From Ignavibacterium sp. (GTDB lineage Bacteria; Bacteroidota; Ignavibacteria; Ignavibacteriales; Ignavibacteriaceae), in the NCBI GenBank assembly GCA_037478755.1, contig JBBFMB010000001.1, forward strand, positions 2,178 to 66,177: a stretch of 64,000 nt of DNA, read 5' to 3'. Under the pieces are notes generated by a model, which saw nothing but the letters and a program-made list of their open reading frames with translations, had not been told where the DNA came from and searched no databases. Shown one piece after another: positions 244-21,794 of the stretch. The position numbers and the translations under genes were made by a program. How positions within the stretch are numbered: the first letter of the stretch is position 1; the number at the start of each line of letters is the position of its first letter.

Positions 244-273
244 AAAAAAGCCCCGTGAATGAACGGGGCTTTT
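244..273 (-). terminator. Rho-independent terminator of the 294-3434 operon
   Basis: AAAAAAGCCCCGT-gaatga-ACGGGGCTTTT hairpin with a U-tract on the minus strand, 20 nt past the stop at 294. Confidence 0.85.
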
Positions 274-2444: not shown

Positions 2445-3434
2445 TTATTTCTTTACAACAATTGATTCGAGATATTTTAATCCGGTTAAAGTTTTTTCAT
2501 CAGATAGAGAATTGCTTGCCTGCTGTATAGAATTTGCGAGCGAGCTTAATTCCTGAATTTTCTGACTGCTTAAGGTATCAATCTGATTTATTTTTTCTGC
2601 AAGCATAGAGATTGATGCGAAATTCTTATGCATTATTTCACTAAGCTTTGCTGAATGCTCTATTAAAAGCTTATACTTTTCCAAATCAGCTAATGATAGA
2701 TTTGGTGCAGATACATTATTACCACCTGCAAATTGATTTAATTGCTTCATCAGATTTTTTGAATTCTCAATCTGAATTCTTGAAAAATATTTTTCACGAA
2801 TATCTTCTACGTGATTAACTACATTCTGAAATTCTACGCCAAGCTGATCAAGCACAGGTTCAAATAATTTTCCGATTGCTAAAACAATTAATGCTTTAAC
2901 TTCAAACGGAACAGAAAGTCCAAGAAAAATTTCTTCACCAAGCTTAATACTAATTAAAAGAATTGCAGCACCAATTAAAGGCAGCGCAGTTGATATACTG
3001 TCAATTACACTAGTGTATGAACTTATAATTCTGTCGATTGTTGCACTCGCGGGAGTTCTGATAATTTCGAGTTTTAATTTATTGAACGCAAGAAAAGCCA
3101 TAAAGACAAAGAAAGCATAAGTTAAAACAGGAAGCCACCAGAAACTATATGGTGAAATTTCTTCCTGAACCGGCTGCCAGTTTGGGAATAATGCTCTTGC
3201 AAGATCGACGGTTACATTTCCAAGAATTGGAACGGTTGACAAATCAAGAAAGAAGGAAAGTATTAGTGCAGCAAATGAAATCAATGCGGGCTTGAATACA
3301 ACTGAAAACTGAATATTTCTAACTGCAGATTTAGTGTATTCTTCAAGCTCTCTTTCAAGCTCATTATTTGTTATGTCAGGATTAAGAAAATCCCTTGTGT
3401 TGTCTTTGGGTGGTTTAACAGCTTGAGTTACCAT
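2445..3434 (-). CDS. 4-TM ion-motor subunit-like protein (GldL/PorL- and MotA/ExbB-like) with a C-terminal coiled coil
   Basis: Four hydrophobic segments; TM3-TM4 read LPLIGAAILLISIK...FEVKALIVLAIGKLFEPV; helical heptad-rich cytoplasmic tail. Confidence 0.55.
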   Translation of the reverse strand: MVTQAVKPPKDNTRDFLNPDITNNELERELEEYTKSAVRNIQFSVVFKPALISFAALILSFFLDLSTVPILGNVTVDLARALFPNWQPVQEEISPYSFWWLPVLTYAFFVFMAFLAFNKLKLEIIRTPASATIDRIISSYTSVIDSISTALPLIGAAILLISIKLGEEIFLGLSVPFEVKALIVLAIGKLFEPVLDQLGVEFQNVVNHVEDIREKYFSRIQIENSKNLMKQLNQFAGGNNVSAPNLSLADLEKYKLLIEHSAKLSEIMHKNFASISMLAEKINQIDTLSSQKIQELSSLANSIQQASNSLSDEKTLTGLKYLESIVVKK

Positions 3435-3477
3435 TATTCTCCTCTAATATGTTTTTAAGTAAAGTTTATTCGTCAAC

Positions 3478-3807: not shown

Positions 3808-5283
3808 ATGATTTATAATAATCCGAGAATATTAGAACTTAATACAAGAGTCTGGCTAAAGAAAAAAAATTTTAAATCAATCGGTGAAATAACTGATTCT
3901 GTGATTGATGAATGGGTAGATTTAGGTTTTGATTTTATTTGGTTAATGGGGATCTGGAAGACAAATAAAGATATCGTTCCTCAATATTGTTTTGAACCAG
4001 ACCTTGTGCAATCATACACCAACGCTCTCAAAGATTGGAAGACTGAAGATATAATAGGCTCGCCTTACTCGATTGATTGTTACGAAATTAATCCTGACCT
4101 TGGCTCACAAGAAGATTTACTTTCTTTGAAAGAAAGATTGAATAAAAAAGGAGTAAGATTAATTCTTGATTTTGTAAGCAATCATTTAAGCGTCGGTTCG
4201 AGACTGGTGAAAGAGAAAAAAGAAATTTTTCTTCCTGCAGATGAATATCTTTTCAGAAATGATCCTTATACATTTTTCAAATCACCTTACAACTCAAAAG
4301 AATATTTTGCTCACGGAAGAGACCCACTTTTTCCTCCCTGGCGCGATACAATCCAAATAAATTTTTACAGTGCCGATGCAAGAAAATTTTTGACTGATAC
4401 TTTGCATTCGATTTCATCTTTATGCGATGGTGTCAGATGCGATATGGCAATGCTTTCAATGAATAATATTTTTTACAATACTTGGATTGGTGCACTAAAA
4501 AAATATGGATACGAAAGACCTAAAGAGGAATTCTGGTCTGAAGCAATAAGCTCTGTTAAATCTTCAAATCCTGAATTTGTGTTTATTGCTGAAGCTTACT
4601 GGGATCTTGAGTGGCAGCTTCAGCAGCTGGGATTTGATTTTACTTATGATAAAAGACTTCTGGATAGACTTTCCGGTTATGATGTAAAAAGTATTAAAGA
4701 TCATCTTCGTGCTGAAAAAGACTTTCAACTTAAATCAGTCAGATTTATAGAAAATCACGATGAAGAAAGAGCTGCTGCAAAACTTGGCAAGGATAAATCT
4801 CTCGCTGCAGCGACAATTATCAGCACAATTCAGGGAATGATACTTTATCACGATGGGCAATTTGAAGGTAAGAAAATAAAACTTCCTGTTCAGCTTGCAC
4901 GCGAACCTTTTGAAAAGGAAGATGACCGAATCAAAACTTATTATTATAAACTGCTTCGGATTACAAAAGATAATATTTTCAGAAACGGCGAATGGTTAAT
5001 GCTTGATCCAACCCCATCTGCAAACTCAGATTTCAGCTTTGAAAATATTTTAATCTGGCAGTGGAAGTATGAAAATCGTTTGATAATTGTAGCAGTAAAT
5101 TATTCCAACTCAACTTCAAGATGCCGCGTTAAATTTGAAACACCTGAAAATAAAATTGTATTAAATCTTAATGATATCCTCAACTTAGTAAGTTATGAGA
5201 GAAGTGTTGAAGAAATTAACGAAAGAGGTTTATACATCGAATTAAAACCATATTCCAGCCACATATTTTCATTCAATATTTAG
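3808..5283 (+). CDS. GH13 alpha-amylase family glycosyl hydrolase
   Basis: Conserved regions DFVSNH, GVRCDMA (nucleophile), IAEAYW (acid/base), FIENHDE. Confidence 0.9.
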   Translation: MIYNNPRILELNTRVWLKKKNFKSIGEITDSVIDEWVDLGFDFIWLMGIWKTNKDIVPQYCFEPDLVQSYTNALKDWKTEDIIGSPYSIDCYEINPDLGSQEDLLSLKERLNKKGVRLILDFVSNHLSVGSRLVKEKKEIFLPADEYLFRNDPYTFFKSPYNSKEYFAHGRDPLFPPWRDTIQINFYSADARKFLTDTLHSISSLCDGVRCDMAMLSMNNIFYNTWIGALKKYGYERPKEEFWSEAISSVKSSNPEFVFIAEAYWDLEWQLQQLGFDFTYDKRLLDRLSGYDVKSIKDHLRAEKDFQLKSVRFIENHDEERAAAKLGKDKSLAAATIISTIQGMILYHDGQFEGKKIKLPVQLAREPFEKEDDRIKTYYYKLLRITKDNIFRNGEWLMLDPTPSANSDFSFENILIWQWKYENRLIIVAVNYSNSTSRCRVKFETPENKIVLNLNDILNLVSYERSVEEINERGLYIELKPYSSHIFSFNI

Positions 5284-8066: not shown

Positions 8067-8921
8067 ATGAAAAATGTTATTCTGATTCTGATAGCTTTAC
8101 TCATTCTTAATGAACACTCATCAGCACAATTACTTAACAATAGTTTTGAGAATTGGGATAATGGAGAAGCTGTCAACTGGTTGTCTAATGATATTTCTGG
8201 TGACCTGGTGTCTCAATCATCAGATGCAGTTGAAGGAAATTCTTCTGTGAAGTTACAAGTTGGAGATTTTGCAGGTGTTGGATTACCTGTTTTTATTACC
8301 TCAGCAGATCTGGATGGTAATGGTCATCCTGTAAATCAAAAATATCAGACACTTAAAGGTTCTCATAAATTATCTGCTAACGGAAATGATCAGCTTTGGA
8401 TTTCTGTGGTGATGGCAGTGAATGATTCAACGACTTTGGGTGGTGGAATGATCTACCTCAATGAAGACAAAAGTGAATGGACTGAATTTACTGTTCCAAT
8501 TCTGTATGATGAAAATAGTCCAGTTCCTCAAATGGCTTTTGTTACTATTTTCCTGCTTGATACTTCTACTGGTTCGGCAAATATCGGTTCATTTGCACTG
8601 ATTGATAATTTGCGATTAGAAAATACGACATCTGTTGATGAAGAAATAAAAAGTGCCTCAAGTTTTAAGTTAGATCAGAACTATCCAAATCCATTTAACC
8701 CAAGCACAAAAATTAGCTGGAATACTTTTTCAGCTGCCCGTAACACTTTGAAAGTCTATAATATACTTGGAAATGAAGTTGCAAAACTGGTAGATGAATA
8801 CAAACCAGCAGGCACTTACAGTGTTAACTTTGATGCAAAGGGATTACCAAGCGGAATTTATTTTTATACTCTCCAGGTTGGGAACCAAGTTCAAACTAAG
8901 AAAATGATTTTAATTCAATAA
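8067..8921 (+). CDS. Secreted protein with a CBM-like domain and a T9SS type A C-terminal sorting domain
   Basis: Signal peptide; LLNNSFENW start; C-terminal FKLDQNYPNPFNPST...GIYFY...KKMILIQ; AGGAGG RBS. Confidence 0.85.
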   Translation: MKNVILILIALLILNEHSSAQLLNNSFENWDNGEAVNWLSNDISGDLVSQSSDAVEGNSSVKLQVGDFAGVGLPVFITSADLDGNGHPVNQKYQTLKGSHKLSANGNDQLWISVVMAVNDSTTLGGGMIYLNEDKSEWTEFTVPILYDENSPVPQMAFVTIFLLDTSTGSANIGSFALIDNLRLENTTSVDEEIKSASSFKLDQNYPNPFNPSTKISWNTFSAARNTLKVYNILGNEVAKLVDEYKPAGTYSVNFDAKGLPSGIYFYTLQVGNQVQTKKMILIQ

Positions 8922-19493: not shown

Positions 19494-21794
19494 ATGAAAA
19501 ATTTTATTCGCTGTTTCGCTTTAATAATTCTTTTCTCGGTTGTACTTTACTCACAACCAGATACAATTACAATTCTTCATATTAATGATTCACATTCAAC
19601 ACTTGAATCAATAGGTCCACGAGATGATAATTTGCAGGGAACACTCGGCGGAATTTCGAGAGTAGCCACACTTGTTGGTTTAACTGAAATGACAGAGCCG
19701 AATGTTCTTTTCCTGCACGCTGGTGATATTTCAATCGGTGATGTGTTCTTCAACAGAAATTTTCATGTCCCTGAACTTCAATTGCTAAACTCACTCGGAC
19801 TTGATGCAATGACTTTGGGAAATCATGAATTTGATTTAGGTCCTGCAGCGTTGCTCGGTTCATTACAATATGCTTTTCCAAATCCTGCTGATGCTTTTCC
19901 GCTTCTTTCTGCCAATATTGATTTTTCTGATCCTTCAATCAGTGAAATGCAGGATTATGTTTATCCTTATGTGATTAAACAATTCGGCAGCACTAAGGTT
20001 GGAATATTTGGTTTAACGACACCAGCAACAAATCTTTTATCAAATCCATCACCAGCAATAGTTAGTGATGATATTGCTACTATTGCGTTTACTACAGTTC
20101 AGACTTTACGGAATGTTGAAATGTGCAATGTTGTTATTCTTCTTTCTCATCTCGGTTTTGAGCTTGATCAGCTTATTGCTGCAAATGTTCCGGGCATTGA
20201 TGTAATTGTTGGAGGTCACGATCATTATAAATATGAAACTCCGATTTCGGTTACGAATAGTTTCGGCGGAACTGCTTTGATTGTTCAGGCGAGATCAAAT
20301 TATATGTATGCTGGAAATATGAAACTCGAGATTAATGGTTCTTCAATTAATTTGATTGATTATCAGCTTATTCCAATTGATGAAAATATTCCTAAGGAGC
20401 CAACAGTTCAAGCCGCTGTTGACGCGATGATAACAGACATAGAAACATTTTATGGAATACCATTTTACACTCAACCGATGGGTTATGCAGTTTCATACTT
20501 TGAAGAAGAAGCAACTAATCTGCTAAATCTCGGACCTCACGATACACCTGCAGGAAATCTTGTTACTGATGCTTTTAAATCTTACACTCAAACTGACATT
20601 GCAATACAAGCAGGCGGTTCAATTGCGCTTCCGCTTTGGGAAGGTGCATTTACTCCGGCAGATGTTTTTCGCCTGAACGGTTACGGATTTAATCTGACAA
20701 ATACACTGGGATTTCAACTTGTAACTTTTAATATTAGTGGTGCAGCACTAATTGCAGGACTTGAGTTCGGTTTATCTGAAATTGAAAAGAGTGACGAGTT
20801 CTTCATTCAGACTTCTGGTGTTGAATACACTTACGATGGAACAAAGCCGCAGGGTTCAAGAGTTGTTTCGGTTAAAATTAATAATCAACCGGTTAATCCA
20901 AATTCAATCTATTCTGTTACAGCCAATGAAATGGTAATTTCAATTCTCGATTATCTTCAGATTCCATATTCTGATTTGAATGTTTTTACTGGTGTTACAG
21001 AATTTCAGGCATTGACTCAATACATAATGGGACAGGGAAATGTATTAGTTCCCAAAAACCTTGGAAGAATATTAAATGTAGGAGACAGAATTCAGAAAGC
21101 GTCAATATTCGGATTTGGCTATATGAATGTTACAATACCATCTCTGTCTTCATTGGAAATGATAAATGCAAAATTATACTTTGAACTTCATGGCATAGAC
21201 AGAGGATTAAACCATAATCCGCAGGGAAAAGTTAATTTGACAATTCCAAAAATTGGAATGATTTTCAGAAGCAATTCTCTCGATTGGCTGCTTGTAGAAA
21301 ATAATAATGCTGTATTAAGAGGAACTGGTAAAATAAATTTTCAGGGGAATTACGGTTATCTTATTTTAGCAATGAACCATCCCGATAAATTGAGAGTAAT
21401 TATTTGGGATGAGAACGATAATGATAAACTTATCTTTGATAATAAGAGCTTACAAAATGTTAATGGCCTTATAAGTTTTGGCAACAGCTTGATGTTTGCT
21501 AAAGATGATTTTACATCAGAGGAAATTCCTGGCAGATTTGTTCTTGAACAAAATTATCCCAATCCATTTAATGCAGCAACTATTATCAGATATTCAATCC
21601 CTGAAGCTGCTAATGTAGAACTTAAAGTTTATGACATACTTGGTAATGAAGTTGCAACTTTGGTTAATGAATTCAAGCCTGCCGGAAGTTACGATGCTCA
21701 ATTTACAATGAATGATTTTGCTTCTGGAATTTACTTCTACAAAATAATCGCTGGTTCATTTATCGATACGAAGAAAATGATAATAATTAAATAA
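19494..21794 (+). CDS. Secreted 5'-nucleotidase/calcineurin-like metallophosphatase with a T9SS C-terminal domain
   Basis: HINDSH, AGD, LGNHEFD, SHLG, GGHDH; 5'-nucleotidase C domain; LEQNYPNPFN...KKMIIIK CTD. Confidence 0.9.
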   Translation: MKNFIRCFALIILFSVVLYSQPDTITILHINDSHSTLESIGPRDDNLQGTLGGISRVATLVGLTEMTEPNVLFLHAGDISIGDVFFNRNFHVPELQLLNSLGLDAMTLGNHEFDLGPAALLGSLQYAFPNPADAFPLLSANIDFSDPSISEMQDYVYPYVIKQFGSTKVGIFGLTTPATNLLSNPSPAIVSDDIATIAFTTVQTLRNVEMCNVVILLSHLGFELDQLIAANVPGIDVIVGGHDHYKYETPISVTNSFGGTALIVQARSNYMYAGNMKLEINGSSINLIDYQLIPIDENIPKEPTVQAAVDAMITDIETFYGIPFYTQPMGYAVSYFEEEATNLLNLGPHDTPAGNLVTDAFKSYTQTDIAIQAGGSIALPLWEGAFTPADVFRLNGYGFNLTNTLGFQLVTFNISGAALIAGLEFGLSEIEKSDEFFIQTSGVEYTYDGTKPQGSRVVSVKINNQPVNPNSIYSVTANEMVISILDYLQIPYSDLNVFTGVTEFQALTQYIMGQGNVLVPKNLGRILNVGDRIQKASIFGFGYMNVTIPSLSSLEMINAKLYFELHGIDRGLNHNPQGKVNLTIPKIGMIFRSNSLDWLLVENNNAVLRGTGKINFQGNYGYLILAMNHPDKLRVIIWDENDNDKLIFDNKSLQNVNGLISFGNSLMFAKDDFTSEEIPGRFVLEQNYPNPFNAATIIRYSIPEAANVELKVYDILGNEVATLVNEFKPAGSYDAQFTMNDFASGIYFYKIIAGSFIDTKKMIIIK

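Follow-up and report, generated by a model that had tools for sequence, protein, structure and literature searches.

ORF329 lies in a 64,000-nucleotide stretch of Ignavibacterium sp. DNA (the window) and raises the question whether one protein stands between two classes of motor. One class is built on the 5:2 ring subunits ExbB, TolQ, MotA, PomA and ZorA (PF01618), the other on GldL/PorL (TIGR03513; PDB 6YS8, 7SAT-7SAZ), which forms the proton-driven GldL5-GldM2 (PorLM) motor of type IX secretion and gliding. GldLM reportedly shows no similarity in sequence to MotAB or ExbBD that can be detected (10.1101/2020.05.11.089193), and its place among the 5:2 motors has been called unresolved (PMC12505986). 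A preliminary description of the locus placed ORF329 between MotA/ExbB and GldL and saw in it a possible link between the two.

ORF329 (P0001; 2445..3434, minus strand) comprises 329 residues, with an ATG start at 3434 and the stop at 2445; a ribosome-binding site, AGAGGAG, was read from the sequence 5 nt upstream of the start (3439..3445, minus strand). The protein is a four-TM inner-membrane protein with a helical cytoplasmic tail and a candidate GldL/ExbB-like ring subunit. Kyte-Doolittle windows are hydrophobic at residues 45-63, 98-116, 143-161 and 169-187, in agreement with the four TM segments originally described; at the same threshold four segments occur in 24/32 family members and three in most of the others. 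Lysine and arginine together number 6 in the N-terminus, 4 in the loop 118-147 and 1 in the loop 66-97, a bias consistent with a topology in which both the N-terminus and the C-terminus are inside. The AlphaFold2 model (pLDDT 84.8) is helical throughout; two long helices, at 130-165 and 167-235, form the TM3-TM4 hairpin and extend into the cytoplasm, and the helical tail comes after them. In Ignavibacterium album JCM 16511 a hypothetical protein, IALB_2935, shares 95% identity with ORF329, and all close relatives originate from Ignavibacteria. HMMER, run exhaustively against 1.84 billion representatives, delivered a family of only 74 clusters. No Pfam model matches ORF329, nor does any NCBIfam model at E≤1, and 32 diverse family members gave no meaningful Pfam match even at E 10 (PF01618 0/32).

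Residue conservation was counted in an alignment of 32 sequences of the ORF329 family. The alignments delimit a core at residues 128-202 (2829..3053, minus strand), which consists of a pre-TM3 helix, TM3 (D145, P152-x-x-G155), a short loop and TM4 (P176-F-E178-x-K180), and has roughly the family consensus 'VDGIGTALPLIGAAILL.SI..GP..FLGFAVPFEIKSI.ILA.AKLFE.VFD'. The strings reported earlier for ORF329 are all in place: LPLIG at 151-155, GAAILLI at 155-161, E178-V-K180-ALI and F191-EPV. P176 is conserved in 32/32 sequences, D145 and D196 in 28/32 each, and K189 in 27/32. The MotA/ExbB-type P-x-x-G at the start of TM3 is likewise kept throughout the family (P152 29/32, G155 31/32). E178 (codon at 2901..2903, minus strand) is present in 29/32 sequences, the three exceptions being short, degenerate members; this near-invariant mid-membrane glutamate sits on the ORF329 subunit, as the suggested correspondence with the protonatable Glu of GldL had it. 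GldL is not alone in having an acidic residue in its last helix: the ExbB-like protein of this genome has one there, in 'GIWEAL'. Among the other charged residues that had been singled out, K180 is well conserved (28/32), E192 partly (21/32) and K164 not (12/32). The GldL-like FEPV ending is present in ORF329 itself and is not family-wide, the consensus being LFE-S-V; since E192 is found in 21/32 members and P193 in just 7/32, 'FEPV' is a feature of the Ignavibacterium subgroup, a local variant of 'LFE.V'. The conservation of charged residues within the helices argues against a plain membrane anchor.

In both GldL and ORF329 a hairpin of helices, the first rich in Gly and Ala and the last with a near-invariant glutamate (E49 in GldL, E178 in ORF329), leads into a long, helical tail in the cytoplasm. 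Both lie directly upstream of a single-pass partner in which residue 9 is basic and residue 17 is Tyr, with periplasmic Ig-like domains. The profile match between the two is weak, though above controls. Differences from GldL are the four TM helices (GldL has two), the lack of an HMM match, an Asp at the position of Y13, a Pro in each hairpin helix and a TM4 that extends beyond the Glu by one to two more turns. With MotA/ExbB it shares the helix count, the P-x-x-G motif and the nearest (weak) fold matches, whereas no sequence or profile match to ExbB, TolQ, MotA, PomA or ZorA was found and merely ~30 residues separate TM2 from TM3.

Profiles were compared by hhalign. For this purpose 27 GldL proteins were aligned, and likewise 33 MotA/ExbB/TolQ proteins, all of them encoded in genomes of the same phylum. 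The GldL strings given in the preliminary description (GAAVVI.., TEALIF...FEPV) agree with the GldL genes of 27 Bacteroidota genomes, which read '..YGMGAAVVI.GALFKI..' and '..GL.TEA.IFALSAFEPV..'. At full length the ORF329 family matches GldL with a probability of 19% over 39 columns, MotA/ExbB with 0.3%, and GldL matches MotA/ExbB with 0.2%. Hairpin-only comparisons were each set against a null of 100 column shuffles. The ORF329 core scored 20.4 against the GldL hairpin (null 11.1±2.2, reached by 0/100 shuffles; HH probability 15%) and 12.7 against the MotA/ExbB hairpin (null 10.3±1.8, reached by 15/100 shuffles), the latter being background; the GldL hairpin scored 15.0 against the MotA/ExbB hairpin (null 10.7±2.4, reached by 5/100 shuffles). 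Reversed profiles, used as a control, scored ~10. Seven profiles of real TM regions were also compared pairwise (21 pairs). The top three pairs were core and GldL (20.4), the GldL and MotA hairpins (15.0), and the helices of ORF315 and GldM (14.9), while the core scored nearly the same against the MotA hairpin (12.74) as against the unrelated MotA TM1 (12.70). Column shuffling breaks hydrophobic runs, and this null is therefore generous to real TM segments, so that the GldL signal of ORF329 is no more than suggestive; with 15-19% probability over 26-39 columns of TM3 alone it lies below the conventional threshold.

The hhalign register sets D145-G-I-G-T-A over Y13-G-M-G-A-A and G155-A-A over G23-A-L of GldL, and differs from the register implied earlier, which would set P152 at GldL Y13. 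The tyrosine of GldL is absent from ORF329, as had been noted, the conserved D145 standing opposite to it. E178 pairs with GldL E49 solely when the alignment is forced to be global, at the cost of an 8-residue gap in TM4. P152 and G155 align in register with 'APLLG' of ExbB, at a background score. The C-terminal tail of ORF329 scored 18.6 against the GldL tail (null 8.2±1.2; probability 1.3%, 23 columns), a value left uncounted because column shuffling destroys the heptad periodicity; other matches of the tail were discarded as coiled-coil noise. HMMs built from the 27 GldL sequences did not list ORF329 among the 5358 ORFs of the genome at E≤10. TIGR03513 (cut-off 68.3 bits) matched neither ORF329 nor any other protein of the genome at E≤10, and PF01618 found four ordinary genes elsewhere in the genome, ORF329 not among them. 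A weak TIGR03513 match in a sister genome was rejected as a DUF948/YtxH-like coiled-coil protein. Searches of PDB sequences with the full-family and core profiles returned noise alone (GPCRs, designed helical proteins, a CoA-transferase). The profile comparisons suggest a modest, reproducible leaning of ORF329 to GldL and none to MotA/ExbB beyond P-x-x-G; kinship with GldL is weakly supported at the sequence level, and within ORF329 only the core at residues 128-202 matches its profile.

Foldseek comparison of the ORF329 model with 350,542 PDB chains delivered nothing below E 0.001. The top five and most of the top 50 matches were ExbB, TolQ and PomA (E 0.03-0.4, probability up to 0.77), with TM2-TM4 of ORF329 mapped onto TM1-TM3 of ExbB. 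By VIA a designed helical channel ranked first, and ExbB scored no better than CorA, RND transporters or ribosome recycling factor. GldL and PorL chains were not among the Foldseek or VIA matches listed for the model, which says little because these chains are short hairpins. In a language-model feature search with residues 40-215, MotA_ExbB (0.80) and ZorA (0.75) were the sole named families among the matches listed; these are leads only. A complex prediction with four copies of ORF329 (residues 40-215) and two of ORF315 (residues 1-60) gave a score of 0.11 (mark 0.32) and counts neither way. The fold evidence leans to ExbB/TolQ and the sequence evidence to GldL, neither being conclusive: the mosaic of motifs is real, while homology is not demonstrated.

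The partner of ORF329 is ORF315 (P0002; 1488..2435, minus strand), a candidate GldM-like axle with an N-terminal TM helix, a helical stretch, a Pro/Glu-rich linker and two tandem Ig-like domains. In its AlphaFold2 model the TM helix and the linker are recognisable, the helical stretch is poorly modelled and the two Ig-like domains are confident (pLDDT ~90). The latter match antibody and cadherin domain pairs and are not evidence for GldM, the fold being too common. ORF315 contains no Pfam domain and does not match PF12081 or TIGR03517. The N-terminus is its best-conserved part across loci: D7, K9, F10, Y13, Q14, L16, Y17, K27 and G28 do not vary among 12 sequences whose overall identity falls as low as 20%. 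N-termini of real GldM read 'PRQKMINLMYLVFIAMLA.N', and a gapless register, which hhalign also recovers, pairs K9, Q14 and Y17 of ORF315 with R9, N14 and Y17 of GldM. The two helices scored 14.7 against each other (null 8.7±2.4, reached by 4/100 shuffles). R9 and Y17 of GldM, together with E49 and Y13 of GldL, are functional residues in GldLM (10.1101/2020.05.11.089193).

The helix of ORF315 (F10-L26) is devoid of Asp, the invariant D7 lying three residues ahead of it. Unlike MotB, ExbD and TolR, ORF315 thus has no intramembrane Asp, and neither an ExbD/TolR fold nor an OmpA-like domain is present. With GldM/PorM (PF12081; PDB 6EY4 family) it shares the basic/amide/Tyr spacing of the TM helix and the order of a helical segment followed by Ig-like beta-sandwich domains. 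Differences from GldM/PorM are the shorter length (315 aa with two Ig-like domains, against ~510-530 aa in GldM), the invariant D7, Y13 and Q14 of its own, and the splitting of its counterpart in distant loci. The partner thus appears GldM-like rather than MotB/ExbD-like. The best match of the GldM HMM built here in this genome was a histidine kinase and was rejected. A second, orphan ORF315-like gene was observed in two genomes (G138 and G145) of another Ignavibacteria family (L168:1498-2415 and L170:1498-2412, both minus strand); it lies directly 3' of a LuxR-type response regulator gene, with no adjoining motor or barrel gene.

The third gene, ORF390 (P0003; 294..1466, minus strand), encodes a protein with a signal peptide (…SFA/QQ, the slash marking the cleavage site) and a C-terminal Phe, probably an outer-membrane beta-barrel and the outer-membrane partner of the other two. 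Its language-model neighbours are 'outer membrane protein' and OmpG-type clusters, a lead only. The genes are separated by 9 nt (ORF329-ORF315) and 21 nt (ORF315-ORF390), and the three-gene unit ends at an intrinsic terminator (246..273, minus strand; 11-bp stem, 6 G-C pairs, T-run) 20 nt past the ORF390 stop. In comparison with GldL, the operon is devoid of gldK and gldN and carries the barrel gene in their place. The predicted cleavage of the barrel proteins (ORF390 and its homologues in L070, L071, L072 and L166) exposes Gln at +1 (…SFA/QQ, …LYA/QS, …TFS/QV), which recalls the 'Bacteroidetes Q-rule'; the paper on this rule states that it is not valid for the whole FCB group. A GH13 alpha-amylase-family gene (3808-5283, plus strand) is divergent from the operon across a 373-nt AT-rich spacer, and no link between a GH13 gene and the module was seen in the other loci.

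ORF329 relatives are encoded by 277 of 185,579 species genomes; the best 80 of these 277 are all Ignavibacteria, mostly Ignavibacteriaceae. In the best 80 species-level genomes, the order motor-axle-barrel was found in 71/71 loci with enough downstream DNA, with median gaps of 12 and 20 nt, and the remaining 9/80 loci, in which the DNA ends early, hold as many module genes as fit. The gene order is also kept in more distant loci, where the flanking genes differ. Among the sampled genomes of the class the module occurs in three families only (f1, f38 and f46). Some distant loci split the axle into a TM/coiled-coil protein of 133-136 aa and separate periplasmic proteins, or add an upstream vWA-OmpA protein. 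In two of them (L072:1669-5796 and L075:3005-5886) two additional secreted proteins are encoded between the axle of 133-136 aa and the barrel, which looks like a division of ORF315's periplasmic part among separate genes, and a trypsin-like protease gene lies upstream in both. In another (L071:5860-7956) the gene directly upstream of a distant ORF329 homologue encodes 698 aa with a Pfam OmpA domain and a DxSxS motif that is vWA-like by eye; this cluster goes on with several lipoprotein-like genes and a TPR/CHAT protein. In the metagenome-assembled genome MFD05442.bin.1.421 (Ignavibacteria) the ORF329 core occurs twice, on separate contigs (L109 and L112), so that the module can be duplicated.

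With its four helices, its conserved charged, proline and glycine residues, the conserved operon, the domain plans of the encoded proteins and the weak profile likeness to GldL and GldM, ORF329 may be regarded as a polytopic inner-membrane motor subunit of an undescribed three-gene envelope module, ORF329-ORF315-ORF390; we estimate the probability of this reading at about one half. For such a module we infer a ring-axle assembly with its stoichiometry, a flow of ions and a load in the outer membrane. ORF315 would dimerise, and a ring of ORF329 would most likely encircle the single TM helices of the dimer, much as GldL surrounds GldM and ExbB surrounds ExbD; TM1 and TM2 of ORF329 would make up the outer layer of the ring, in the manner of MotA. 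The proton path would run through E178 in the middle of the membrane, together with K180 and opposite Y17 of ORF315, and D145 and K189 of ORF329 together with D7 and K9 of ORF315 could form a second polar layer at the cytoplasmic face. Movement of ORF315, through its helical stalk and two Ig-like domains, would cross the periplasm to the barrel ORF390.

It is very unlikely that ORF329 is a true intermediate, with detectable homology to both MotA/ExbB/TolQ and GldL, that links the motor classes by sequence. The MotA-like count of four helices, P152-x-x-G155 in the register of ExbB 'APLLG', the aromatic-Glu in the last helix (compare 'WE' in ExbB and 'TE' in GldL) and a GldM-like partner with the invariant D7 just ahead of its helix speak for it, as do Foldseek and language-model neighbours that lean to ExbB/TolQ/ZorA where hhalign leans to GldL. 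An intermediate is, however, expected to outscore GldL against MotA, and the core scored lower than GldL did (12.7, reached by 15/100 shuffles, against 15.0) and no higher than against the unrelated MotA TM1; GldL itself is thus at least as near to MotA/ExbB as ORF329, contrary to the prediction for an intermediate. The full-length probability of 0.3% against MotA/ExbB and the count of 0/32 for PF01618 at E 10 point the same way. From the proposal of the preliminary description the weak likeness to GldL, the conserved Glu, the P-x-x-G and the GldM-like partner are retained, whereas the likeness to MotA/ExbB falls to background and the bridge between the two motor families is not borne out. The preferred reading is that ORF329 represents a family of its own, which leans to GldL and has a MotA-like helix count; it is not a demonstrated intermediate. 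There is also an appreciable chance, well short of even, that ORF329 is no motor subunit at all and instead an unrelated membrane scaffold, tether or channel, whose likeness to GldL and ExbB reflects convergent hairpin features. Every similarity score is sub-threshold, the VIA ranking, led by a designed channel, sets CorA, RND transporters and ribosome recycling factor level with ExbB, and the tail matches are coiled-coil noise. Such a protein would, however, leave unexplained why two neighbouring genes match a pair of neighbouring motor genes with order and register both correct, why intramembrane Glu and Lys residues and prolines are nearly invariant, and why ExbB, TolQ and PomA fill most of the Foldseek top 50 from 350,542 chains.

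If the module is a motor, type IX secretion (T9SS) is one process that it could drive. The genome has SprA (1019 bits) and 113 matches to Por_Secre_tail, the T9SS C-terminal sorting domain. Two proteins of the window end in this domain (~49-50 bits), at 8682-8909 (ORF 8067-8921, plus strand) and 21555-21785 (ORF 19494-21794, plus strand). No GldK, GldL, GldM or GldN was detected in the 86%-complete genome with curated models or with the HMMs built here; in the search for gldK and gldN TIGR03523 gave no match, and TIGR03525 only match fragments of FGE-sulfatase type. With SprA and the cargo tails present and these four proteins undetected, the operon is a candidate T9SS power unit. A survey likewise found PorV, SprA and Plug and no other T9SS protein in Ignavibacterium and Melioribacter (PMC11705866), and in Flavobacterium without the motor substrates remain trapped on the translocon, their release needing the motor (PMC10994853). 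That the module is the missing T9SS motor of the Ignavibacteriaceae, replacing GldLM and, via ORF390, the GldKN hub, nevertheless appears unlikely. Its role in T9SS is weakened by the many SprA-bearing Ignavibacteria that do without the three genes: 13 such genomes have no GldL, GldM_1st or ORF315 relative, and among the sampled families the triad is confined to the three named above. In a sample of 121 genomes of the phylum SprA occurs in 96, whereas GldL (TIGR03513) and GldM_1st (PF12081) coincide in a single set of 29; it is therefore common for a translocon to lack a recognisable motor, and Ignavibacterium is no special case. No T9SS gene adjoins the operon in any locus read. The combined proposal, that ORF329 and ORF315 are a remote member of the 5:2 rotary motors, with a MotA-like outer pair of helices and GldL/GldM chemistry, and power the otherwise motor-less T9SS of the Ignavibacteriaceae via a barrel of their own instead of the GldKN ring, is highly doubtful.

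As a four-helix, GldL-leaning family with P-x-x-G, ORF329 and its relatives would offer a new independent lineage for the phylogeny and structure of these motors, although the gap in sequence between the motor classes stays. For Ignavibacterium, with more than 100 T9SS cargo tails in the genome studied here, the operon may be considered a concrete and clonable candidate (IALB_2935) for the energy source of this secretion system.
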